From NCBI GenBank assembly GCA_964580065.1, contig CAZOJE010000002.1, positions 2,978 to 66,977 of the forward strand: a DNA stretch of 64,000 nt. Reading direction: 5' to 3'. Numbering within the stretch: the stretch's first letter is position 1; each line of letters begins with the position of its first letter. Under the pieces are notes generated by a model. That model made no database searches, was not told where the DNA came from, and saw only the letters and a program-made list of their open reading frames with translations. Position numbers and translations under genes: made by a program. This DNA is from an uncultured Candidatus Saccharibacteria bacterium. GTDB lineage: Bacteria > Patescibacteriota > UBA1384 > DTJR01. This document shows, in pieces, positions 6,981 to 22,547 of the stretch.

Positions 6981-8141
6981 GTGGTTGAAGTGACGAAGTA
7001 TTTCGCCGTGGTCGTGCTCCTTGCTGTGGTTACGACATTTGTACCACAGCAGGCGATGGCGGGAGGGGTGTTTGAGCTCGTCTTTGGCTCCAAGTCGAAG
7101 ACGGTTCAGGCCTTTGCCCCCGGGGTCATTGGGGCTTTTTCGGCCCGTGATCCGAGAGACTTACACGAGGTCAGCTTTGACCTCGACGGCTCCGGCCGGC
7201 GGGTGGTGCTGGATACCGGCATCCCCGTTGAGAAGGGGCTAGTACTGGTGGGTATCCTTGCTGCCAGCACGGCGGCGAGAAACGCCCAAAAAGCCGTTCT
7301 ACGCCTAGATCTCGATCCGAAGGCTTTTGACGTTGTGCCAGGGCCGAGATCAGGCGAGGATCAAGAGGCGTGGTTGGCCTACGCAGTCACCTGCGCCAGA
7401 TACAAGGTTGGGGCAGGCGGGAGGGCCTTCAAGCCCTTCCAGACGGCGTCACCACCATTCGTATTCGTCGTCGATTCGAGTACGCTGCTGAACTCGGCGC
7501 ACTCGATCGACATTTATCTGGAGTGCGGGGGGACGGGAGCGTCGTTCTTACTGCCCTTCCGGGTTGTTCAGTTGGCTGATGAGACTGGACAACCGATCCA
7601 GAGCGAGTACCAAAAGCCGCTGCCGGCTGGTGCTTACTCTGGCGGAGCAGTTCCGCCCAGTCCCGCTGCTGGCGACTTTGCTGCGCAAGCGCTGGCAAGC
7701 GCCCCCTGGAAGGCGAGGATCAAGGAGGCGGCCGCCAAGCACGGCCTAAACCTGGATACCTCCTCCGAGAAGGACTTTAGGCTCGGCGGAACGTTTCGCT
7801 GGCCTAAGGATAAGGGCCCTTCTCCCTTCATCGTCATTTGCCTCGGCAAGGACGGCCTCCCCTTGCCGCAGGGGAAGATTTCCCTCCTTCTCATGGATAG
7901 AGACAAGATCAGGAGGGAGATCAAGGGAGATGTTATCGACGGAATGTTTGTTTCTTACGATGTTCCGTCGATCAAGCAGGTCGCGTTCCGGGTGAACGGG
8001 CAGATATTGTCCGTTAATATCGTTCCACCCGGGCACGACCCATACTTCGTATGGCAAACGCGTCCCCACGACAAGACGGTGGGGACGTATGTTGTACTCG
8101 TCCAAGACAAGGGCGAGTGGCGCATACCGCGATCTAACTAG
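6981..8141 (+). CDS. Secreted hypothetical protein with a signal peptide, on strongly GC-rich foreign-looking DNA
   Basis: GTG start with an AAGGAG Shine-Dalgarno. The signal peptide ends ...AMA|GG. Codon usage is GC3-rich, unlike its neighbours. No known domain recognised. Confidence 0.6.
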
Positions 8142-8146
8142 AGGAG

Positions 8147-9283
8147 GTGCGCAAGATGCGCACGAAGATTGTCGCATTGACATTTGTCGTGGCCATGGTT
8201 GCTTCGACCGCCATGGCAGATCGGCCGTCGTACGTTCGTGAGGTGAGGGTGGCCCTGACGCACGAAAGGGTCATCCAAGATCCTCGCTTCGCCGCTTTCG
8301 CTCGGCAGTTCGGCTTGTGCGAGAACGTCTTCACGAGTTTCCCGCACAAGCAGGCGAATCTCCCGTCGGAAACGACGGGAAAGTTTCGCTGGGGTGTCGA
8401 CGACTCCCAGGCCAAGGAGTGGGGAGCCGTTACACCGCAGGAGTCGGCCTGTTTCCCGGGGGTACTGTACGACCTCGGGAACGGCTGGTTCCTGCACGCC
8501 CAGCTAGGAGCACTGGGAAACGCTATCCTGTTCTACGGGCGTTTCCCGGGAGCGGGTCCAGCTGGTCCTGCCGGCCCACAGGGTCCTGCCGGTCCTCCTG
8601 GGCCTAAGGGCGATGTTGGTCCGATGGGTCCGGTTGGTCCTACCGGTGCTACTGGAGCTACTGGTCCGGCTGGTGCTCCTGGACCGGCGGGTCCCAAGGG
8701 CGACGCGGGCCTGCAGGGGGCTCCCGGCACGGACGGGGCCGATGGTGCTCCCGGGCCTAAGGGCGACAAGGGAGATACTGGCCCACAGGGTGTCCCCGGA
8801 GCTACGGGCGCTACGGGCGCCAAGGGTGATACGGGGCCTGCTGGTCCCCCTGGACCAGCCGTTGCCGCCGCGCCAGCACCGGCGCCGGCTCCTCCCGAGA
8901 AGCCCAAGAAAAAGCGGGAAGCGCCCTGTGTTTGGGAGCCGCAACCACTTGAGCGGCCGTGCCAGCCACTGGTACAGAAAATCGTCGTGGCTGGCATGCG
9001 CAATGACCGCCCCTTTGGAGTTGACGTTCACGGGGCGCAGCCAATCATCATCCAGCAACCCGGCCGGCCGGGCTTGCTGGACTATGTGGTGCCTCTTGGC
9101 GCGGCCTATCTCGGCCGGGCCGAAGGCAGCCGTTACTACTTGTCGGCCACCGGCGGTACGGCTGTCGCCACCGGTGGCCAGGGCGGATCGGCTTGCGTTG
9201 GGCCGATCACGAACGTGAGCAGCAACACAAACTCCAACGCAAATAGCAACTCTAACGCGTTGGCCGCTAGTGCCGGCAACTAG
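8147..9283 (+). CDS. Secreted collagen-like (G-X-Y repeat) protein, on GC-rich foreign-looking DNA
   Basis: GGAGG Shine-Dalgarno; signal peptide (...STAMA|DR); about 34 uninterrupted GXY triplets ([20 protein letters not shown]...). A Pro/Ala linker follows, then a C-terminal globular region ending in an Asn/Ser-rich tail, [12 protein letters not shown]. Confidence 0.7.
8555..8860 (+). repeat. Collagen-like triplet repeat coding region (~34 x G-X-Y)
   Basis: Direct read of 9-nt/3-codon periodicity GGN-CCN-NNN in frame with CDS 8147-9283. Confidence 0.7.
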
Positions 9284-9449: not shown

Positions 9450-10118
9450 ATGGCTCAAAGAGGTAAAATGAAAAAAGCAATGACGATTGTTGCAGGAATG
9501 GCCTTAATTGGCTTGGCTACTCCTGTCTACGCCGCAGACACTGCCACTGATTTAACCAATAAAATCATGGCAAATGTCTCGAGCGACCTTCAAAAATCGG
9601 GGATCAAGGCGAATCTTGCAGGTTCGGCTAACCCGTGTTGCATAAGTGGTGGCACATGCTGCGCTAATGGTGGCAGCAATATTACCAATATCAACACTAA
9701 TAACAATACTTCGAGCAATTCGAATAGCATTGCGGTTAATGTTGGAAGCAAGACCTCTGACACTGGCGGAGCAGCCGCTTCAGCCGGTGGTGGAGCTTCA
9801 GCTGGTAATGGGGCCGCCGCTTCAAGTTCAGCCGCTGCCGCCGCTGGCAATGCCAGCGCTTCAGCGTCTGGAGCCGCTTCAGCCGGTACAAATGGAGCTT
9901 CAGCTTCTAGCGCCGCAGCTGCTTCAGCTGGTACAACTAAAGCTAGTACGACCGCAAAGGTTGCTGTTGCCAAAAAGACTGTTAGCAAACCGGCCGAATT
10001 ACCAAAAACCGGTTTTCCGGTTGCACCTGCTGCGGTCGCTTCAGTGGCCGTTAGCGGAGCTTCAGCTGCCGCTTTAGCAATCAGAAAGAAGCTCGCTTTC
10101 ATACGAGAGAATCTTTAA
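9450..10118 (+). CDS. LPXTG-motif cell-wall-anchored surface protein, a sortase substrate
   Basis: N-terminal signal peptide; a Cys-rich CCISGGTCCANGG motif; an Asn/Ser-rich tract; an Ala/Ser/Gly-rich low-complexity region. The C-terminal LPKTG (nt 9999-10013) is followed by a 23-aa hydrophobic segment and RKK, a classic sorting signal. Confidence 0.65.
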   Translation: MAQRGKMKKAMTIVAGMALIGLATPVYAADTATDLTNKIMANVSSDLQKSGIKANLAGSANPCCISGGTCCANGGSNITNINTNNNTSSNSNSIAVNVGSKTSDTGGAAASAGGGASAGNGAAASSSAAAAAGNASASASGAASAGTNGASASSAAAASAGTTKASTTAKVAVAKKTVSKPAELPKTGFPVAPAAVASVAVSGASAAALAIRKKLAFIRENL

Positions 10119-10143: not shown

Positions 10144-10175
10144 GAAAAACTCCGGTTCGCCGGAGTTTTTCTTTT
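10144..10175 (+). terminator. Intrinsic terminator after the LPXTG gene; bidirectional in form
   Basis: AAAAACTCCGG ttcg CCGGAGTTTTT, a perfect 11-bp stem with an A-run before and a T-run after. Confidence 0.65.
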
Positions 10176-10210
10176 TGTCTTTTTCGGGAAAAAACGATAC
10201 AATTACCCTG

Positions 10211-11182
10211 ATGAAAAAAGAAGAATTAGCCAAACTGCTAAAAATTGACGATAAAACTCGTGAAGCCGAGGAAATTCAGCAAAAAATGCTCGAAGAGGGC
10301 TTTTGGAATGCTCGAGAATTATCCGCTAAACTAAGCCAGCGATTGGCTTATTTAAATGATTTTTTAACTAAATTTGCCAATAGCGAAACCGAAGCAGAAT
10401 TAGCCGATTTGGAAAAAGATGCTTTGTTCGACGAAGAATTTGACGAAATGGCAACTATTTTATCAATTCATGCCGGTGCCGGCGGTACCGAAGCGCAAGA
10501 TTGGGCCCAAATGCTTGAAAGAATGTATCTGCGTTATTGCGAAAAGGAAAATTTCTCGGCGACAATTCTTGATTCGTCCGAAGGCGAAGAAGCAGGTATA
10601 AAAAGTTGTTCGATCAAAATCGACGGGATTAATGCGTATGGTAAGCTAAAATCGGAAAATGGCGTTCATCGGCTAGTCCGAATCAGCCCGTTTGATGCCG
10701 ATAAAGCCCGCCATACATCTTTCGCTTTAGTGGAGGTGATTCCGGAATTTGACGATATCGGTGATGTTGATATTGATGAAAAAGATCTCAAGGTTGACGT
10801 TTTTCGCTCTGGCGGACACGGTGGGCAATCGGTTAACACAACTGATTCGGCGGTCAGAATCACTCATTTGCCAACCAAAATTACGGTTTCGGTGCAAAAT
10901 GAGAGATCGCAGCTGCAAAATCGCGAAACGGCCATGAAAATCTTAAAAATCAAGCTTAAGAAAAAAATGCTTGATAGTCAAAAAGAAAAAGAACGCGACA
11001 TCAAGGGTGGCCATATTTCGGCTGAATGGGGCAATCAAATACGATCGTATGTCTTGCAACCGTATCAACAGGTAAAGGATCATCGTACGCAATTTGAGTC
11101 AGCCAATCCCGAAGCAGTTTTGGATGGCGATTTAAATGGATTTATTGACGCTTATTTGAAGTGGCAACACGAAAAAAATTGA
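10211..11182 (+). CDS. prfB: Peptide chain release factor 2
   Basis: SPF tripeptide and GGQ motif (SGGHGGQSVNTT). The ORF is uninterrupted from TTG 10175; ATG 10211 (MKKEELAKLL) is the likely start. No internal in-frame TGA programmed +1 frameshift site is visible. Confidence 0.85.
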   Translation: MKKEELAKLLKIDDKTREAEEIQQKMLEEGFWNARELSAKLSQRLAYLNDFLTKFANSETEAELADLEKDALFDEEFDEMATILSIHAGAGGTEAQDWAQMLERMYLRYCEKENFSATILDSSEGEEAGIKSCSIKIDGINAYGKLKSENGVHRLVRISPFDADKARHTSFALVEVIPEFDDIGDVDIDEKDLKVDVFRSGGHGGQSVNTTDSAVRITHLPTKITVSVQNERSQLQNRETAMKILKIKLKKKMLDSQKEKERDIKGGHISAEWGNQIRSYVLQPYQQVKDHRTQFESANPEAVLDGDLNGFIDAYLKWQHEKN

Positions 11183-13087: not shown

Positions 13088-14035
13088 ATGGGTCTAGAAG
13101 TGTCGAAAAAATCTGCCACTGTTGGATTGGTGGCCTTGGTGGCTGTTTTGGCTGCGGGAGGTTATAGTTTTTATAACATGTCACAGGTATCCGCTGATGT
13201 TGTTGGCGATACAGACATTAGCACTTACACTTCGGCTCTTTGCGGCAAGGGCAATCCGGTTGCGGGCTACTATAAAAAAAGTGTCGATGAGAATGTAACT
13301 TTTTTGCCAGAGTCAACGAGCTCGACTACAGCCAATAAGGCGGCTGCGGCTACAACCACAGCTACAGCTACTTCGACGACTTCGACTGAATTGTCATCGC
13401 TAAAAATATCGACCAAAACCAAAACCGAAGGCAGATATGTCGAGTTAACAACTATTGCCGGAGAAGACTCCCAGCAAAAATTTTCTGTCGGTATCAGTGC
13501 GGTCATCGCGTCGGGAACAGGATCCCTACAAACATTGAAAGCAGGCGACAAAATTAATTTTTATGTCAGAGTGAAAAATAATGCCGACACAACTTTGAGC
13601 CAAAAAGGAAGCGACCGGATTTATTTGACATTTTCAGATGCGGCCACAGGCAAAAACATTAGTTCGAGAATATTCACAGTCTCCAAGACCAATTCGAAAG
13701 CAATCTCAAAAGCCACTGCCAAAGCGAGCAAAGAAGAGTATCAAACTTTTGCCGTACCAAAGATTTTAGACGGCAAAACACTATCAGTTGGAGTAAAATA
13801 CTACGCTGGCGCTGAAAACAAGAGAACCATTTTCGGCAGAAGATCTTCAAAGAGTGCTTACTGGCTAATTGATAGCGGTTTCCTCGGTTATTGCAATCTT
13901 GACATGAAAAATGTTTTCATGCTTGGAGACACAAGCACAACCGACGGATGCGATGTTTCGGCTGGCGCTACGGCGACAACGACTGTCACAACCACCACAG
14001 CTACGCCTACGACTACCGTTACGACCGCAGATTGA
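13088..14035 (+). CDS. Hypothetical secreted/membrane-anchored protein with Thr-rich termini, inserted between rplA and rplJ
   Basis: N-terminal TM/signal segment, poly-Thr/Ala stretches, no known domain. Confidence 0.5.
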   Translation: MGLEVSKKSATVGLVALVAVLAAGGYSFYNMSQVSADVVGDTDISTYTSALCGKGNPVAGYYKKSVDENVTFLPESTSSTTANKAAAATTTATATSTTSTELSSLKISTKTKTEGRYVELTTIAGEDSQQKFSVGISAVIASGTGSLQTLKAGDKINFYVRVKNNADTTLSQKGSDRIYLTFSDAATGKNISSRIFTVSKTNSKAISKATAKASKEEYQTFAVPKILDGKTLSVGVKYYAGAENKRTIFGRRSSKSAYWLIDSGFLGYCNLDMKNVFMLGDTSTTDGCDVSAGATATTTVTTTTATPTTTVTTAD

Positions 14036-16493: not shown

Positions 16494-16518
16494 TTTTACA
16501 TTCTCTATTTGGTATAAT
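16490..16518 (+). promoter_or_regulatory. Extended -10 promoter (TGGTATAAT) upstream of the first coupling-ATPase gene
   Basis: TGgTATAAT at 16510-16518; a weak TTTACA lies upstream at short spacing. Confidence 0.4.
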
Positions 16519-16533
16519 TACAAGTAGAGGAAA

Positions 16534-19014
16534 ATGTTGAATAATCAACTATATAGTGAGGGTCCCAATTTTGTCGTGATTTTTCTGTGCGTATTGGGCG
16601 CTGTAGTATTTTTTGTCTTACTATATTTTTTGTATCGAAAATATCTTAAATCTAAATTGACTAAAAGGGCAGACGACTTAATTATTTTAGAAGTAAAATT
16701 GCCAAAAAAGTACGAAAAAGAAGAGTATGAACAGCAAAAAACTATCAGGGACATAACGGCGGGGGCGGATCAATTTTTTACGGCCCTGTCTTCTTTATGG
16801 GTAGATGGTTTTAAAGGATTGTTCTTAGGTCAGCCAGTCGTTTCATTTGAATATGTCGCGAAAGACCACGAAATTATGTTTTATGTTGGCGTACCAAGAG
16901 CGGTTGCCTCATTAGTTGAAAAACAAATCCAAAGTTTTTACCCTAGCGCCAACGTCGAACCAAGCGGGGATTTTCGCGTTTTTAAGGAGGGGCTAAAAAT
17001 TGCTTACGGTAATTTGCGACTGTCGCGCAGTTATATATATCCTATTCGAACATACACCGAGCTGGAGAATGACTCGATTGCAAACATTACCAATGTTTTG
17101 TCGAAAATTGGCGAAGATTCAAGAGCGGTTATTCAAATCTTGGTTAGACCAGCCAATCAAAGCTGGCGTGGTCAAGCGGATTGGATGATTAGGCGGATCC
17201 AAGAAGGAAAAGGCACGGCATTTGGGGTGAGTTGGTGGAACAAATTGGGATATTATGCCGGTCAATTATTCTCGGCGGCGGCGACTAACAACAAAGACCA
17301 ACAATTAAATAAAATAACACCAATGCAGGAGGAAACGATTAAATATCTCACGGCAAAAAGTGCAAAGCCAGGGTTTGATGTTCAGATAAGATTAATCAGC
17401 TTGGCCAAAACAGCTCCTGAAGCCGAAACCAATCTTAAAAACCTTGCTTCGGGCTTCTCGCAATTTTCTACACCTGACCGCAATGGTTTCAAATTAGTGC
17501 GCGCCCACGAAGAAAAGTCGTTTTTAACTCATTTTATTTTGCGATCTTTCATTGGTTTCAAAAAGAACCTTCTTAATTCCGAAGAATTAGCTAGCATTTA
17601 CCATTTTCCTTCAGAGCACATTGATACACCGGGGATTAGGTGGTTTAACGCCAAGCGCGCTCCAGCGCCGGCCAATATGCCTAAAGAGGGGCTAATATTG
17701 GGCAAAAATGTTTATCGGGGCGAAGAAACTATCATTCGTCTTAAAGAGACCGACAGACGCCGCCACCTTTATGCCATTGGTATGACCGGCACGGGTAAAT
17801 CAACATTTTTTGAATCGATGATTTTGCAGGATATAAGAGAGGGGAAGGGGCTGGCCTTGTTCGATCCACACGGCGAATTGGCAGAAAGCATCTTGGATAA
17901 AATCCCCAAGGAACGCGCCGATGACGTAATTTATTTTGATCCGGCCGACACCGAAAGACCGATGGGTCTTAATTTGCTCGAATGGAAAACTAAGGAGCAA
18001 AAGGATTTTCTTGTTCAAGAAGCTATTCAGATTTTTTATAAATTGTTCGATCCGAACGGCCAAGGATTTGTTGGGCCGCAATTTGAACATTGGATGAGAA
18101 ATGCGGCCTTGACTTTAATGGATTATCCCGAAGGCGGCACGCTTATCGAAATACCAAAACTTTTTATGGACGACGGTTTTCGACAGGAGCGAATTAAAAC
18201 AATCAAGGATAATACGGTGAAGGCGTTCTGGGAAGAACAAATGGCCAAAACATCCGATTTTCATAAATCGGAAATGTATAATTATTTTATTTCTAAATTT
18301 GGCCGTTTTATGACCAATATTACGATGCGCAATATCATCGGCCAAACGCATAGCGCTTTTGATTTGCGCGAAGCAATGGATTCGGGCAAAGTCTTGCTGA
18401 TTAACTTGTCAAAGGGAGAGATTGGGGAAATAAATAGTAATCTTTTGGGTATGATTTTCGTGGCCAAACTTTTCACGGCCGCTTTAAGTCGAGGCGATGT
18501 TGAAGAAAATGAAAGGCGGGATTTTTATCTTTATGTTGATGAGTTTCAAAATTTTGCCACCGATACTTTTTCTTCAATTCTTTCCGAAGCGAGAAAATTT
18601 CGTTTAAATCTCAATATTACTAACCAGTACATTGCCCAAATTCCCGAGCCAATTAGAGATGCGATCATTGGTAATGTTGGTTCACTGGTTTCATTTAGGA
18701 TTGGTGTGCCGGATGCGGAATTTATGGCTAAAGAATTTGAGCCGATTGCTAATCAAACTGACCTTAACCAAATAGACGCTTACAACGCCTATGCCAAGAT
18801 TTTAATTGATAATGCTCCGACCAAAGCATTCAGCATGCAAACAATTAAGGATCCGACGGAAAAAAATGCTAAGCTTGGGCAGGCAATGCAGGAGCTGTCG
18901 CGATTGAAATATGGCCGCGATGCTTCTATTGTAGAAAGTGAGATAGGCGAGAGACTTAAGACCGTAGAAGTGCCAGAGCAGAAAGACTTTGTAAGGGAAG
19001 CGGGAGTTAAATGA
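16534..19014 (+). CDS. VirD4/TraG/TraD-like (type IV coupling protein-like) P-loop ATPase, membrane-anchored, with a ~380-aa N-terminal domain of unknown function
   Basis: N-terminal TM helix; Walker A (GMTGTGKST); DPHGEL; Walker B (YLYVDEFQNFATD). A paralog of the next gene. Confidence 0.6.
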   Translation: MLNNQLYSEGPNFVVIFLCVLGAVVFFVLLYFLYRKYLKSKLTKRADDLIILEVKLPKKYEKEEYEQQKTIRDITAGADQFFTALSSLWVDGFKGLFLGQPVVSFEYVAKDHEIMFYVGVPRAVASLVEKQIQSFYPSANVEPSGDFRVFKEGLKIAYGNLRLSRSYIYPIRTYTELENDSIANITNVLSKIGEDSRAVIQILVRPANQSWRGQADWMIRRIQEGKGTAFGVSWWNKLGYYAGQLFSAAATNNKDQQLNKITPMQEETIKYLTAKSAKPGFDVQIRLISLAKTAPEAETNLKNLASGFSQFSTPDRNGFKLVRAHEEKSFLTHFILRSFIGFKKNLLNSEELASIYHFPSEHIDTPGIRWFNAKRAPAPANMPKEGLILGKNVYRGEETIIRLKETDRRRHLYAIGMTGTGKSTFFESMILQDIREGKGLALFDPHGELAESILDKIPKERADDVIYFDPADTERPMGLNLLEWKTKEQKDFLVQEAIQIFYKLFDPNGQGFVGPQFEHWMRNAALTLMDYPEGGTLIEIPKLFMDDGFRQERIKTIKDNTVKAFWEEQMAKTSDFHKSEMYNYFISKFGRFMTNITMRNIIGQTHSAFDLREAMDSGKVLLINLSKGEIGEINSNLLGMIFVAKLFTAALSRGDVEENERRDFYLYVDEFQNFATDTFSSILSEARKFRLNLNITNQYIAQIPEPIRDAIIGNVGSLVSFRIGVPDAEFMAKEFEPIANQTDLNQIDAYNAYAKILIDNAPTKAFSMQTIKDPTEKNAKLGQAMQELSRLKYGRDASIVESEIGERLKTVEVPEQKDFVREAGVK

Positions 19015-21746
19015 AAAAGCTAAACGTGCCTACAAGCGCTGATAAAGTTTTGATGCGTTTGATGGTGCCGAAAAACAACGAAAAAACGCCGGCGGCGGCG
19101 GAATTGTTTTTTGCCGCCTTGCATGGCGTTTATAATTACTCAAGCCGAATTCAGCCCGAAATGAGCTTTGAAATAGTCTCAATCAACAAGTTTATCCAAT
19201 TTTACTTTTGCGTGCCGAGAGAACTGAAGGAATTTGTTGAAGGCCAGTTTTATGCTCAATATCCAACCGTGGAAATTTCCGCCGCCGATGATTATACCGA
19301 GAAAATTTTTGAAGAAAAATATGCCGTAGGATATGATGTTCAGACAACTAAAGAAGACGTTTATCCGATAAAAACTTTTCAAAGTTTTGAAGTTGACCCT
19401 TTGTCGGGTATCACAAGTGTCTTGAGCCAACTAAGTGCCAATGAAGAAGTTTGGATACAAATTTGTGTTTCGCCGGCTTCCGATCAGTGGCAAAAAAAAG
19501 CGACTAGCTTTGTAAAGGCGATAAAATCCGGCAATGATCCGAACGAACCGATTTGGAAAACAATTCTTGGCGGTTTGGGTACTATTGCTAAAACTGTTAG
19601 CGCTCCGCCGACGCAAACGGCTTCCGCACCAACACAAGTAGATATCAGCGGCCCGGCCGCTTTAGCAATGAGTGGTATTGAAACGAAGTCAACAAAACTC
19701 GGTTTTAAATCAAAGATAAGAGTCATATCTTTGTCGGGCGACTATCATCGCGCCAGAGCTAATGCCGGTTCTGTTGCAGGTGTTTTGAAGCAATTCACTC
19801 AAACGAATATGAACGGTTTTATACAGGGCAATATTGTTGAGGGTGCGCCAGTGGTAGATCTTTATAAACAAAGAACAGTTGGCTCGACGGGATATATTTT
19901 GAACATAGAGGAGCTGGCAAGCATTTATCATCTTCCGGGCGAAAGTGTTGAAACACCGGCAATGGATTGGGCTGGGAGTAAAAAAGGTGAGCCGCCGATG
20001 AATTTGCCGCTGATAAATGATTTGCATGATTCGCAGGATACGACTATTGTCGGAAAAACAGATTTCCGAAATGAGGAAAGAAATTTTGGTATTAAAATCA
20101 AAGATAGGGCTTTGCATGTGTATGTTTTGGGAAAAACCGGTACTGGTAAGTCAACCCTTTTAAGCAATCTGATTATCGACGATATTATAAAGGGCCGCGG
20201 CGTTGCCGTTGTCGATCCGCACGGTGATTTGATCAATGACGTTATGGAATATATTCCCGAAAGCCGAATCAACGACGTGGTCTATTTTTCACCGGCTGAT
20301 CGTGATTATCCCATCGGCTTCAATCTGCTAGAAAGTGTTGATCCCGAATATAAAAACATTGTTGCTTCAGGCATTGTGGGGATTTTTAAAAAAATATTTG
20401 GCGAATCGTGGGGACCGCGTTTGGAATATATTTTGCGCAACGTTGTTCTTGGACTTCTTGATTATCCGGGCGCAACGATGTTGAGCATTATCAAAGTCCT
20501 GACCGATACAAAATTTAGAAGGGGAGTAATTGAAAAAATTAGCGATCCGGTTATTAAGGACTTCTTTCTTAATGAATATGAAAAGTATGATCAAAAATTT
20601 AGAACAGAAGCCGTAGCGCCGATTCAAAATAAAGTCGGACAGTTTCTTTCGTCTACAATTATTAGAAATATTGTTGGACAGGAGGAAAGCACGATTGATA
20701 TTCGTAAATTAATGGACGAACAGAAAATTCTGCTTGTCGATTTGTCCATGGGTAAAATCGGTGAAGATAACAGCGCACTTTTGGGCTCAATGTTAATCAC
20801 AAAAATTCAAATGGCGGCAATGAGTCGAGCTGATATGCCCAAACAATTGCGTGTGCCGTTCTATCTATACGTTGATGAGTTTCAAAATTTTGCGACAGAT
20901 TCCTTTGCAGTTATTTTATCTGAAGCAAGAAAATATGGCTTGAGCTTAATGATGGCTAACCAGTACATTGCCCAAATGCCGGAAAATGTGGCTAATGCAG
21001 TCTTCGGCAACGTTGGAACAATTATCGCTTTTCGAGTGGGCGCCCAAGATGCCGAGGGATTACAAAGAGAATTTATGCCGGTATTTGAAGCTAATGATTT
21101 AATTAATCAGGATAATTACAATATTTATATTAAAATGGCAATTGACGGGATTACCAGTTCGCCGTTTTCGTCTAAGACAATTTTGCCGATTTACGAAAAA
21201 ACCGACAATATTGCCAACATTACCGAGCAATCACGCATTAAATATTCTAAACCTCGCGAAGAAGTAGAAAAGCAAATCAGGGATAAAACGGAAAACATCC
21301 AAACGCCTACGGAAATTTTGGGGAGCAAAAAGGACGAAAATCCAATTGTTAAAGAAGATAATAAGACAAGTCCAGATACGAGCGTGAAAGAAGACAAAAC
21401 AGAAGATGCTAAAAATGGATTATTCGTCAGCGATATGAACGATAAACGAGAAGATCAGCATGAAAAAGACACAGAAGAGAGTGGGGAACAGAGCCAGGAT
21501 AACGACGCTGATATTCCTGAAGAATTAAAGAATGCTAAAACAGCCGAGGATTATGAAATCAACAAATGGTATTTTCTAACGCGAACGGGTTTTAGAAAAG
21601 TAATTGGCAGAGAAGAAGAACAAGCGCCAAAACGAGCAGAGGAAATGGAAACGAATAAAAATGAGCCGGCAAACACTGCAAGTGTGGGAGCGACGATAGG
21701 GCAAAGTAGCTCGTCTGACACACAAGAAATACCCGAAGCACAATAA
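19011..21746 (+). CDS. Second VirD4/TraG/TraD-like ATPase paralog, with no N-terminal TM and a ~170-aa acidic disordered C-terminal tail
   Basis: Motif order matches the upstream gene: LGKTGTGKST, DPHGDL, YLYVDEFQNFATD, NQYIAQ. It overlaps the upstream gene by 4 nt (ATGA). Confidence 0.6.
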   Translation: MKKLNVPTSADKVLMRLMVPKNNEKTPAAAELFFAALHGVYNYSSRIQPEMSFEIVSINKFIQFYFCVPRELKEFVEGQFYAQYPTVEISAADDYTEKIFEEKYAVGYDVQTTKEDVYPIKTFQSFEVDPLSGITSVLSQLSANEEVWIQICVSPASDQWQKKATSFVKAIKSGNDPNEPIWKTILGGLGTIAKTVSAPPTQTASAPTQVDISGPAALAMSGIETKSTKLGFKSKIRVISLSGDYHRARANAGSVAGVLKQFTQTNMNGFIQGNIVEGAPVVDLYKQRTVGSTGYILNIEELASIYHLPGESVETPAMDWAGSKKGEPPMNLPLINDLHDSQDTTIVGKTDFRNEERNFGIKIKDRALHVYVLGKTGTGKSTLLSNLIIDDIIKGRGVAVVDPHGDLINDVMEYIPESRINDVVYFSPADRDYPIGFNLLESVDPEYKNIVASGIVGIFKKIFGESWGPRLEYILRNVVLGLLDYPGATMLSIIKVLTDTKFRRGVIEKISDPVIKDFFLNEYEKYDQKFRTEAVAPIQNKVGQFLSSTIIRNIVGQEESTIDIRKLMDEQKILLVDLSMGKIGEDNSALLGSMLITKIQMAAMSRADMPKQLRVPFYLYVDEFQNFATDSFAVILSEARKYGLSLMMANQYIAQMPENVANAVFGNVGTIIAFRVGAQDAEGLQREFMPVFEANDLINQDNYNIYIKMAIDGITSSPFSSKTILPIYEKTDNIANITEQSRIKYSKPREEVEKQIRDKTENIQTPTEILGSKKDENPIVKEDNKTSPDTSVKEDKTEDAKNGLFVSDMNDKREDQHEKDTEESGEQSQDNDADIPEELKNAKTAEDYEINKWYFLTRTGFRKVIGREEEQAPKRAEEMETNKNEPANTASVGATIGQSSSSDTQEIPEAQ

Positions 21747-21754
21747 TATTGTGC
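21738..21754. repeat. 17-nt perfect palindrome GCACAATAATATTGTGC spanning the stop codon of the second ATPase gene
   Basis: Read directly; a second palindrome, CAATATTG, lies at 21761-21768. Confidence 0.5.
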
Positions 21755-22480
21755 GACATGCAATATTGATCTAAAAATATGCCATCTAATAGGATAAAAT
21801 TTTAGTATTATTACGAATTGATCTTATGGGCGTAAAAGAGGATTAAAATAGAAAAATAAATCCTAAATTAGGAGATTGATTATGGCTCCTCTGAATAAGG
21901 GAGAGCCGGGGGAGGGGTTGAAAAAGCGGTTTTTATTTAATTAGTATGCCGGTGAGGAAGCGGCAAGGTGATATATTTGTGTGTGAGAAATTTTTAGAGA
22001 AACGTTTTCAATTAATTTAGAGTTTTATCTGCAAAATGTATTTATACAAGTATCGAGCAGATTGAGTGTCATTGTAGTGAAAAAAATAGAATATAACGCT
22101 TCGTACTCTACGTCGAACAATATATCTTTTGCGACATAGGGCTGACAAAAAATGCATATTAATTTTTCTTTTGCTCTATTTTTAATCATTTGATTTTTAA
22201 ATAAATATTAATTTAACAATTTCTATCTATTTATCTTTATTTAGTGATTTAATCCTTCATATATACCCTAGGTGTTTGCTCTGGTTTTTACAGGGTAAAC
22301 TTTAAAACAGAATTTATTTTTATTATTTAAATTTTTTAAAAAAGATAAATTTGGTATGCAAAAATATTACGATTTGTTGCATTTGGCGGCCATTTTACAC
22401 CTGTTTTAGCCGCTAGAATCGTCCAGAATCGATTTTTATTTTTTAAATGAGTATTTCTTCGTCTACACTTAAAATTTCAC

Positions 22481-22515
22481 AAAAGATCTCCCCCGCTTTT
22501 AAAATTGCGGTGGGG
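22481..22515 (-). terminator. Putative terminator of secDF on the minus strand
   Basis: Minus-strand hairpin CCCCACCGC...GCGGGGG followed by TCTTTT, ~33 nt after the secF stop. Confidence 0.4.
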
Positions 22516-22547
22516 TATTAACAAGTAGTATCTATTTTGAGTACTTT

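Follow-up and report, generated by a model that had tools for sequence, protein, structure and literature searches.

In type IV coupling proteins (T4CPs) such as VirD4, TrwB and TraD, an N-terminal membrane domain, usually of two helices, is followed by a P-loop motor, a member of the FtsK-HerA superfamily in which Walker A and Walker B accompany an all-alpha insertion; TraD and DotL also have a disordered C-terminal tail. VirB4-type ATPases (VirB4, TrwK, TraC) share a two-part architecture of ~800 aa, in which an N-terminal alpha/beta domain precedes a C-terminal P-loop motor. In Patescibacteria, the bacteria of the Candidate Phyla Radiation (CPR), a recent survey counted 5,713 VirD4-like T4CP homologues in 2,918 of 3,035 genomes, as well as separate bona fide VirB4 proteins (Quinonero-Coronel et al., 2025; PMC12102498). 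The essential type IV secretion system (T4SS) cluster of Southlakia epibionticum has no recognisable coupling or relaxase protein (Wang et al., 2023; PMC10633639). Here we compare these systems with two tandem genes, A and B, in a 64,000-nt stretch of contig CAZOJE010000002.1 from an uncultured Candidatus Saccharibacteria bacterium (hereafter, the window).

Our results suggest that A and B represent a distinct, uncharacterised T4CP subclass, in which a domain with the predicted fold of the VirB4 N-terminus precedes a TrwB-like motor. The best-supported reading is that they are T4CP-type motors from a monoderm conjugation lineage, which mirrors the published origin of CPR VirB4.

Domain architecture of the gene pair

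The motor of A scored above the Pfam gathering cut-offs for T4SS-DNA_transf (PF02534), TrwB_AAD_bind (PF10412) and DUF87 (PF01935), and that of B for TraG-D_C (PF12696), DUF87 and TrwB_AAD_bind. TrwB and DotL were the best matches in a sequence search of the Protein Data Bank (PDB), both for the single proteins and for a profile of 98 family sequences, and VirB4 was not detected in the search with the family profile. Comparison of the family with TrwB by hhalign gave 94% probability (E = 1e-7) over 286 columns, covering TrwB residues 115-410, against 1.9% probability for TrwK, the VirB4 of R388, which was aligned at the P-loop only. This is further supported by Foldseek, which superposed the motor of A on TrwB-deltaN70 over ~415-440 columns of the ~420-residue target (TM-score by target, TMt, 0.62-0.67; root-mean-square deviation ~5 Å). 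The superposition takes in the all-alpha insertion, and profile and structure thus match almost the whole soluble domain of TrwB. From these profiles and models, the motors of A and B very probably fall in the VirD4/TraD/TrwB branch of the FtsK-HerA superfamily. The original prediction had called them VirD4/TraG/TraD-like ATPases, and classification domain by domain indeed places the motor inside the TraG/VirD4/FtsK/HerA clade and not outside it. The best NCBIfam matches of the motors were VirD4-like CD1115, TraD of the SXT/TOL type and CedD, all far below the equivalog cut-offs, which points to a divergent T4CP subclass.

Several other identities were considered and rejected. The model of the VirB4-type C-terminal ATPase, TIGR00929, matched A and B at the P-loop only (17.6 bits, cut-off 643), and AAA_10, P-loop_TraG and CagE_TrbE_VirB gave no match. 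FtsK_SpoIIIE (PF01580) reached 16 bits against a cut-off of 24, again only at the P-loop. Neither PF17854, PF09397 nor PF13491 matched A or B, and no gamma or winged-helix domain was found in them. Replacement of FtsK was rejected, as S. epibionticum has a canonical essential FtsK beside both paralogues and the Pfam FtsK match stays below its cut-off. The HerA models of NCBIfam scored 12-16 bits against cut-offs of 800, the DUF87 match was partial, and PADLOC returned weak matches to mad8 and HerA (E = 1e-12 to 1e-16). No HerA partner (NurA, Sir2, nuclease, methylase or other defence gene) was found near A and B among the open reading frames (ORFs) scanned. A HerA or anti-phage defence ATPase was rejected on account of these weak matches, the lack of partner genes and the phylum-wide core conservation described below. 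Similarity to the terminase large subunit (phrog_2666) proved to be limited to the P-loop.

The N-terminal domain common to A and B had been described as of unknown function. It corresponds to Pfam DUF8128 (PF26449). This entry is precomputed for protein P0001, which is 100% identical, and for every close homologue of A and B, so that the assignment of the window proteins runs via the annotation of homologues and not via direct scoring. Homologues of A combine PF26449 with PF10412, PF01935 and PF02534. When the AlphaFold2 (AF2) model of the B domain (pLDDT 90.6, pTM 0.86) was compared with the PDB by Foldseek, the top 13 of 13 significant matches were TrwK/VirB4 chains, with E-values down to 5e-6 and TM-scores by query (TMq) of 0.41-0.47; the next best fold had a TM-score of 0.17. 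In BFVD, the same domain matched gp156 of phage G, itself a family member (TMq 0.67), and the N-terminal part of the VirB4-type phage G protein gp155 (TMq 0.50, E = 2e-8). The AF2 model of full-length A (pLDDT 90.1) was collinear with full-length TrwK over ~900 columns (E = 6e-15). At the sequence level, PF03135 did not match, and hhalign against TrwK found nothing in the N-domain. Hence, the models indicate that DUF8128 has the fold of the VirB4/TrwK N-terminal domain, with a resemblance at the fold level only. Our literature searches for DUF8128 and PF26449 found no paper, and the modelled VirB4-like fold is new.

Profiles and structure models together indicate an architecture of transmembrane (TM) helix, VirB4-like N-terminal domain and T4CP motor. 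A and B thereby resemble VirB4, TrwK and TraC in their two-part layout and in an N-domain fold that matches both TrwK and the phage VirB4-type protein, and A with its TM helix presumably resembles VirB3-VirB4 fusions in topology. They differ from VirB4 in that the motor is closer to TrwB, without sequence similarity beyond the P-loop. Compared to VirD4, TrwB and TraD, the superfamily motor, Walker motifs and all-alpha insertion are the same, as is the combination of a membrane anchor with a disordered C-terminal tail. In contrast to these proteins, A has one TM helix and B none, and ~330-340 aa of DUF8128 lie between anchor and motor.

The TM helix of A is followed by the K/R-rich stretch RKYLKSKLTKR, from which the positive-inside rule predicts that the C-terminal bulk of A is cytoplasmic. 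The N-terminus of B lacks a TM helix (mean Kyte-Doolittle hydropathy over 19 residues, KD19, 0.98). The claim that only the first protein is anchored is thus correct for the window, but not as a general trait, since nearly all B orthologues of other lineages do have an N-terminal TM helix. B without TM helix appears to be the derived state, with the anchor lost in this lineage. A long acidic, disordered tail had been ascribed to B only, in agreement with the composition of its last ~147 residues (765-911; 25% D/E and 14% K/R). Elsewhere, the B tail varies between lineages and may be acidic or basic, with short beta-strand-like motifs in common, for example LEEGxxVKL. The C-terminal extensions of long (1.4-2.0 kb) family members contained no Pfam domains, and their cluster names were uninformative.

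A and B share 37% identity over 734 aligned residues (BLASTP, E = 3e-160). The alignment spans both N-domain and ATPase, starting near residue 100 of A and running through the ATPase to its end, and both proteins show the motif order G(M/K)TGTGKST, DPHG(E/D)L, YLYVDEFQNFATD, NQYIAQ, GNVG, all in line with the tandem paralogues of the original prediction. The predicted ATGA overlap of the two genes is likewise present, with the 4 nt read as …GGGAGTTAAATGAAAAAG…, and a Shine-Dalgarno-like GGGAG lies 5' of the start codon of B. Because the stop codon of A overlaps the start codon of B, the paralogues appear to be translationally coupled. Walker A and Walker B are intact in both, and the GC content of the genes is that of their surroundings. 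An extended -10 promoter had also been proposed. The string TGgTATAAT does exist, 16 nt 5' of the start codon of A, but its role as a promoter is only putative, because a -35 element is not present and a consensus scan of the region gave 18 promoter-like matches versus 16.6 in shuffles, without enrichment. Since the gap between tgt and A is only 40 bp, co-transcription of A with tgt is equally possible. The features are listed in Table 1.

Table 1. Coordinates of the gene pair, its domains and motifs, the downstream region and a plasmid module that contains a relative
Feature	Position	Strand	Details
Extended -10-like string TGgTATAAT, putative promoter	16510..16518	+	
Gene A	16534..19014	+	826 aa, A-type DUF8128 coupling-protein-like ATPase; predicted layout: single N-terminal TM helix, VirB4-N-terminal-domain-like domain, TrwB-like motor
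A, predicted TM helix	16570..16638	+	Residues 13-35; KD19 = 3.09; AF2 helix over residues 13-48
A, DUF8128 domain	16666..17703	+	Residues ~45-390; VirB4 N-terminal-domain-like alpha/beta fold (predicted)
A, T4CP-type P-loop motor	17716..18843	+	Residues ~395-770; Pfam, hhalign, Foldseek
A, Walker A	17779-17802	+	GMTGTGKS
A, all-alpha insertion			Residues ~487-602, between Walker A and Walker B; all helical in AF2 model
A, Walker B	18523-18546	+	FYLYVDEF
ATGA overlap, A stop/B start	19011..19014	+	Read from sequence
Gene B	19011..21746	+	911 aa, B-type DUF8128 coupling-protein-like ATPase
B, DUF8128 domain	19044..20030	+	Residues ~12-340; VirB4 N-terminal-domain-like fold, AF2 model
B, T4CP-type motor	20058..21320	+	Residues ~350-770; Pfam, NCBIfam, PDB profile search
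B, Walker A	20130-20153	+	GKTGTGKS
B, Walker B	20859-20882	+	FYLYVDEF
B, acidic low-complexity C-terminal tail	21321..21743	+	Residues 771-911; short aromatic motif NKWYFLTRTGF
B-secF convergent intergenic region, replication terminus	21747..22547	.	Skew and switch of gene orientation
dif-like Xer site	22112..22135	+	GTCGAACAA-TATATC-TTTTGCGAC; inverted arms, 6-bp centre
NRS6116_2 conjugation module (L096)	NZ_OX419581.1 39108-52337		63.6-kb plasmid

Relatives in conjugation modules, phages and Patescibacteria

Outside the CPR, A and B are matched end to end by phrog_5156 (PHROG 5156; E ~1e-94), and tblastn found relatives with 22-25% identity over 78-93% of the protein in SPO1 (gp27.4) and its kin, in phage G (gp156) and on plasmids. 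PLSDB contained a match in 366 plasmids, 38 of which had a single match covering at least 80% of the query; their hosts are Bacillus, Streptomyces, Staphylococcus, Clostridium, haloarchaea and Sulfolobus. On the Bacillus subtilis plasmid NRS6116_2, the gene for the DUF8128 ATPase (WP_144625398.1) is followed by those for a replication-relaxation family protein, TcpC, TcpD, TcpE and an AAA_10 VirB4-type ATPase. From its gene content, this is a Gram-positive conjugation module with the DUF8128 protein in the T4CP position. In phage G, a TrbL/VirB6-like gene (gp153, TrbL_4), the VirB4-type ATPase gp155 and the DUF8128 ATPase gp156 stand in a row. Judged by these contexts, the DUF8128 subclass appears to serve conjugation modules as their T4CP, in monoderm bacteria and probably in archaea too; this setting of the family outside the CPR is new. 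The plasmid and phage proteins have the same full-length architecture as A and B, but their genes are single-copy, lie on mobile elements and are paired with a relaxase-like Replic_Relax gene. We found no experimental characterisation of DUF8128 relatives in the literature searched.

In SPO1, gp27.4 adjoins the Replic_Relax protein gp27.3, and gp27.9 is an actin-like protein (Alp7A-like). Phage G also has a homologue of gp27.3. SPO1 (gp27.3-27.9; locus L004 of our comparison set, whose loci carry the prefix L) and phage G (gp146 and gp153-156; L005) therefore both carry conjugation-like genes, the role of which in phages appears undescribed. Neither VirB4 nor VirB6 was found beside the DUF8128 ATPase in SPO1-type phages. 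MOB-suite types NRS6116_2 as non-mobilizable despite its full Tcp-type module, DUF8128 T4CP and replication-relaxation protein, and the same typing was given to 291 of the 366 plasmids with a DUF8128-type T4CP. Possibly, a class of conjugative elements may have been systematically overlooked.

Judging by the names of the homologues, the organism is a CPR bacterium near Candidatus Berkelbacteria. Relatives of A and B with 50-77% identity occur within the CPR on contigs of up to 742 kb and retain the order tgt - A - (small ORF) - B - gap - secF secD. Searches gave more than 2,000 close homologues, the genome scan at least 596 loci (in Saccharibacteria, Berkelbacteria, Nealsonbacteria, Nomurabacteria and Parcubacteria), and the profile search 10,596 clusters at 50% identity with E <= 1e-30. 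A- and B-type orthogroups separate cleanly, both among the fetched loci (21 versus 79) and among the top cluster representatives (70 versus 77). From these two clean orthogroups, which extend across Patescibacteria, the duplication of A and B appears to be ancient. A- and B-type genes belong to the core of nearly all Patescibacteria, and earlier surveys had arrived at roughly two T4CP homologues of this kind per genome. Table S3 of one of them, for example, lists a genome with two T4CPs away from virB4, genes 83 and 85 (Quinonero-Coronel et al., 2025; PMC12102498). Contrary to the original prediction, which regarded the pair as unusual and perhaps lineage-specific, the pair is phylum-wide when profiled across relatives, has been counted as T4CP homologues before, and has an architecture that recurs on plasmids and in phages. 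It does differ from VirD4, TrwB and TraD in that A and B are chromosomal core genes, two ancient paralogues without an adjacent relaxase or T4SS.

The order of the genes varies. A and B are directly joined, as in the window, or separated by fam12 or by fam12 and fam1, and they are adjacent or near-adjacent in at least 20 loci. In Saccharimonadia, B stands alone after dprA-topA-fam1 and A is found at another locus. In Saccharimonadia-like genomes (L090, L093, L094), the A-type gene lies directly 5' of gyrB-gyrA, and B follows dprA-topA and faces the dcw cluster (ftsQ, murG, ftsW, mraY, ftsI, ftsL, rsmH) across a dif-like site. The protein fam1 (~350 aa; Sigma70_r4, Rok-like winged helix and HARE-HTH) is encoded directly 5' of B in 69 of 85 loci (L009-L022 and L025-L085; e.g. 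L039 587-1639). Often located between A and fam1 is fam12, a protein of ~170 aa without a Pfam match. A short (100-280 aa) acidic, proline-rich, low-complexity ORF usually precedes A-type genes, abutting or overlapping the start of A (e.g. L003 9231-10004, L007, L008, L010, L014, L020, L023, L090 7572-7982 and L094 6552-6989). No homologues of fam1 or fam12 were found in the window, and the acidic ORF is absent there as well; tgt ends 40 bp before A. A role of fam1 as a dedicated DNA-binding adaptor of B is weakened by its absence from the window and by the S. epibionticum data below, in which the fam1 equivalent is essential while B is not. Similarly, fam12 and the small acidic ORFs gave no clue, as they have no Pfam match and are absent from the window.

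Transposon sequencing (Tn-seq) data are available for S. epibionticum (Wang et al., 2023; PMC10633639). In that study, SEML1_0293 (921 aa; TrwB_AAD_bind, TraG-D_C and DUF87) was non-essential at every time point. Ahead of it lies the gene of a 349-aa "RpoS" (SEML1_0294, the equivalent of fam1), with topA two genes further, which is the synteny of B. SEML1_0294 was essential, as was SEML1_0142, a protein of 1,019 aa with a "TraM recognition domain" and a P-loop domain at residues 381-800. SEML1_0141, the 139-aa ORF before SEML1_0142, scored as growth-defective at first and as essential at the two later time points. A canonical FtsK with 4TM-alpha-beta-gamma organisation (SEML1_0096) was also present and essential (all Wang et al., 2023; PMC10633639). 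SEML1_0142 is followed by gyrB-gyrA (SEML1_0142-0146 region). Three A-type DUF8128 proteins of Saccharimonadia-like contigs have the same arrangement of small ORF, A, gyrB and gyrA, one of them also with the YifB gene upstream; from this arrangement we infer that SEML1_0142 is the A orthologue, by synteny and not by sequence. Mapped in this way, S. epibionticum requires its A orthologue but not its B orthologue. The published remark that the t4cp homologue is dispensable hence holds for the B paralogue only, and the opposite essentiality of the two orthogroups is new.

These data bear on an explanation in which A and B form an obligate heteromeric, membrane-tethered translocase specific to this lineage, with A as anchor subunit and B as the subunit that bears the tail. 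The ATGA coupling would fit such a complex, as would the complementary features of the window proteins (TM helix in A only, acidic tail in B only), the adjacency or near-adjacency of the genes in at least 20 loci and the intact Walker motifs of both paralogues. In the R388 machine, moreover, the VirB4 N-domain mediates protomer-protomer dimers, as indicated by the titles of PDB entries. In contrast, B orthologues of other lineages almost always come with a TM helix of their own, and the pair is phylum-wide instead of lineage-specific. In Saccharimonadia, A and B reside at separate loci, and only one of the two is essential in S. epibionticum; both observations argue against an obligate A-B complex in general. 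We therefore consider this explanation possible, but rather doubtful.

The replication terminus and a dif-like site downstream of B

The original prediction noted a non-coding gap of ~800 bp downstream of B. The gap is indeed non-coding, with no ORF of at least 60 aa, no tRNA, no Rfam match and no remnant of fam17, and explanations in terms of Rfam families, tRNAs or small ORFs were abandoned after these searches gave nothing. It is not featureless, though, because it contains a dif-like site at the replication terminus. The GC skew changes from positive to negative at 22 kb, with a cumulative maximum at 22-23 kb, and the AT skew also switches at ~22 kb. The called genes lie on the + strand from 128 to 21746, and nearly all of them on the - strand from 22548 on. 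From both skews and the switch in gene orientation it follows that two replichores converge in the B-secF gap.

In E. coli, the dif core is GCGCATAA-TGTATA-TTATG, also given as GGTGCGCATAATGTATATTATGTTAAAT. The site in the window reads GTCGAACAATATATCTTTTGCGAC in full (22112-22135) and is present as a single copy, with 0 matches expected by chance. A near-identical element lies 3' of B in distant CPR lineages whose flanks are not conserved. One lineage group has the variant GTCGCATAATGTATGTTATGCGAC, which resembles the canonical E. coli core, and variants read GTCGCATAA-TGTATG-TTATGCGAC. Like known Xer/dif sites, the element has inverted arms of ~9-11 bp around an AT-rich 6-bp centre, is single-copy and is located at the GC-skew switch. 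Its architecture, single copy, terminus position and cross-lineage conservation mark it as a dif-like site, as far as sequence comparison goes. A point of difference is that its arms are nearly palindromic, which suggests a single Xer-type recombinase, by analogy with difH and difSL. No tyrosine/Xer recombinase gene was found among the window ORFs scanned. Our literature search for dif in Patescibacteria found no paper.

With a loose arm-centre-arm pattern, the site was found at most 1.5 kb 3' of B in 46 of 72 eligible loci (median distance 310 nt), a 13-fold enrichment in density over the rest of the loci, and anywhere 3' of B in 59 of the 72. Longer distances are due to extra genes in between, as in some Saccharibacteria (L036, L039, L041, L047, L072). 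In L047, two dif-like copies, at 13923 and 18911, one of them degenerate and the other perfect, flank a ~5-kb insert beside B, and inserts of this type suggest, from their sequence, that Xer-exploiting mobile elements (IMEX-like) occur in the CPR. The linkage of B and dif persists with differing flanks, either tgt/A or topA/fam1 upstream and either secF or the ftsQ-dcw genes downstream. The adjacency of B to terminus and dif is new. It might be retained ancestral synteny, the trace of an ancient dif-integrated element, or a functional tie.

A functional tie would be expected if A and/or B acted independently of any T4SS, as chromosomal DNA translocases that pump or organise DNA at the membrane during terminus segregation, decatenation or Xer/dif dimer resolution, in the manner of FtsK, SpoIIIE or SftA. 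FtsK and SpoIIIE belong to the same superfamily of membrane-anchored, ring-forming DNA pumps, and FtsK acts at dif, the very site that B adjoins. B is the last gene before the dif-like site both in the window and in 46 of 72 CPR loci with differing neighbours, and in Saccharimonadia-like genomes A lies beside gyrB-gyrA and B beside topA. The homologues are rarely near virB4 and are commoner across genomes than VirB4, and SPO1-type phages combine the ATPase with Replic_Relax and actin-like segregation proteins in the absence of VirB4 and VirB6. The dispensability of B, furthermore, resembles xer/dif phenotypes. Conversely, A and B lack the 4TM, alpha and gamma domains of FtsK and any winged-helix domain, FtsK_SpoIIIE matches them at the P-loop only and below its cut-off, and S. 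epibionticum has a canonical 4TM-alpha-beta-gamma FtsK that is essential and coexists with both paralogues. Outside the CPR, the family sits in bona fide conjugation modules, and where genomes are small and rearrange slowly, synteny by itself says little about function. This explanation therefore seems unlikely.

The position at dif, a known integration hotspot, might also be taken to mean that A and B are decaying remnants of a conjugative or dif-targeting (IMEX-like) element, or an anti-phage ATPase of the HerA type, without a housekeeping role. The two dif-like copies around the L047 insert beside B, the relatives on plasmids and phages, and the weak PADLOC matches to mad8 and HerA (E = 1e-12 to 1e-16) are compatible with this idea. 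Yet, both ORFs are intact with all catalytic motifs, their GC content equals that of the surroundings, and orthologues with 50-77% identity keep the same housekeeping neighbourhood. Both orthogroups persist throughout the phylum, the A orthologue is essential, neither a nuclease, a methylase, NurA nor another defence partner was found nearby among the ORFs scanned, and the window has no second dif copy. These data would fit purifying selection (dN/dS well below 1) and gene phylogenies congruent with the species tree. A remnant or defence system is accordingly very improbable.

Possible role in type IV secretion

The essential T4SS of S. epibionticum without a recognisable coupling protein, together with the essentiality of the A orthologue as mapped by synteny, would fit a role of A and B as domesticated coupling motors that serve a T4SS whose genes lie elsewhere in the genome. 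On balance we lean towards this role, with little more than even confidence. A and B would each form an ATP-driven hexameric ring at the cytoplasmic membrane. The VirB4-like N-domain might dock this ring onto the inner-membrane platform of a chromosomal T4SS-like machine, presumably consisting of VirB3, VirB4, VirB6 and VirB8 homologues encoded elsewhere in the genome. The variable disordered tail could recruit substrates or adaptors, after which the ring would feed DNA or unfolded protein into the channel. In this scheme, A would act as the principal motor, with B as an accessory or alternative receptor. In the lineage of the window, where B has lost its own anchor and is coupled to A at translation, B probably works bound to A.

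Several observations weigh against a coupling role in a T4SS. As the original prediction stated, tgt lies upstream and the pair is not flanked by T4SS genes: none of the 40 neighbouring ORFs scanned across the 64 kb proved to be a relaxase, VirB4, VirB6 or pilin gene. Nor were T4SS genes found within ±10 kb of A and B in any CPR locus examined, and longer contigs of relatives (279-742 kb) showed no complete conjugative T4SS flanking the pair. In the published survey, only 148 of the 5,713 T4CP homologues were near virB4, and VirB4 occurred in 2,417 genomes (80%) against 96% for T4CP homologues (Quinonero-Coronel et al., 2025; PMC12102498). The latter difference could be explained by the two copies of the T4CP gene and by incomplete metagenome-assembled genomes. 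Relaxases are nearly absent from Patescibacteria, and according to the same authors exaptation of the Patescibacteria T4CPs cannot be excluded (Quinonero-Coronel et al., 2025; PMC12102498). In the Tn-seq data, the T4SS is essential, yet the cells can do without the B orthologue. Finally, the positions of B beside dif and of A beside gyrBA hint at chromosome-related roles.

A more speculative idea, to which we attach only a slight chance, joins these positions with coupling. Here, the adjacency of B and dif would be functional in the relaxase-poor Patescibacteria, with dif/terminus and Xer as a cis-acting entry point at which a T4CP-type pump passes chromosomal DNA to the T4SS or runs terminus processing independent of FtsK; in parallel, the DUF8128 subclass may represent an ancestral architecture that links VirB4 and VirD4.

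The pair is surrounded by housekeeping genes: 5' of A lie dprA, topA, recR, cysS, collagen-like ORFs, prfB, pth, rplA, rplJ, rplL and tgt, and 3' of B, convergent with it, secF, secD, a trxB-like gene, gap and others, on to RNR, ftsZ and ftsA. No tRNA genes or Rfam matches were found in the window. At 6981-9283, two adjacent ORFs (386 and 378 aa) have a GC content of 0.51-0.59 versus a background of ~0.40. The second of these contains collagen triple-helix (GXY) repeats and tandem repeats of 18/27 nt, and is probably a surface or fibre protein. A gene resembling that of release factor 2 (RF-2; PCRF and RF-1 domains) was called from a TTG start at 10175-11182, preceded directly by a 222-aa ORF without a Pfam match (9450-10118); the canonical CTTTGAC frameshift motif of prfB was not found near 10.1 kb. 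Between rplA (L1) and rplJ (L10) lies a 315-aa ORF (13088-14035), also without a Pfam match, and relatives have different unannotated ORFs in this interval, two in L001 and none in L091.

A large share of bacterial diversity belongs to Patescibacteria, which are host-dependent, and a T4SS-like machine is essential in the one genetically tractable species among them. The A-type DUF8128 protein offers a concrete candidate for the coupling ATPase that has been reported missing from this machine. More broadly, a T4CP subclass with a predicted VirB4-like docking domain would be common to the CPR, to plasmids of Bacillus, other monoderms and archaea, and to phages of the SPO1 and G types. The dif-like site provides a practical terminus marker for CPR assemblies, and raises the prospect of a link between the gene of a DNA pump and dif.

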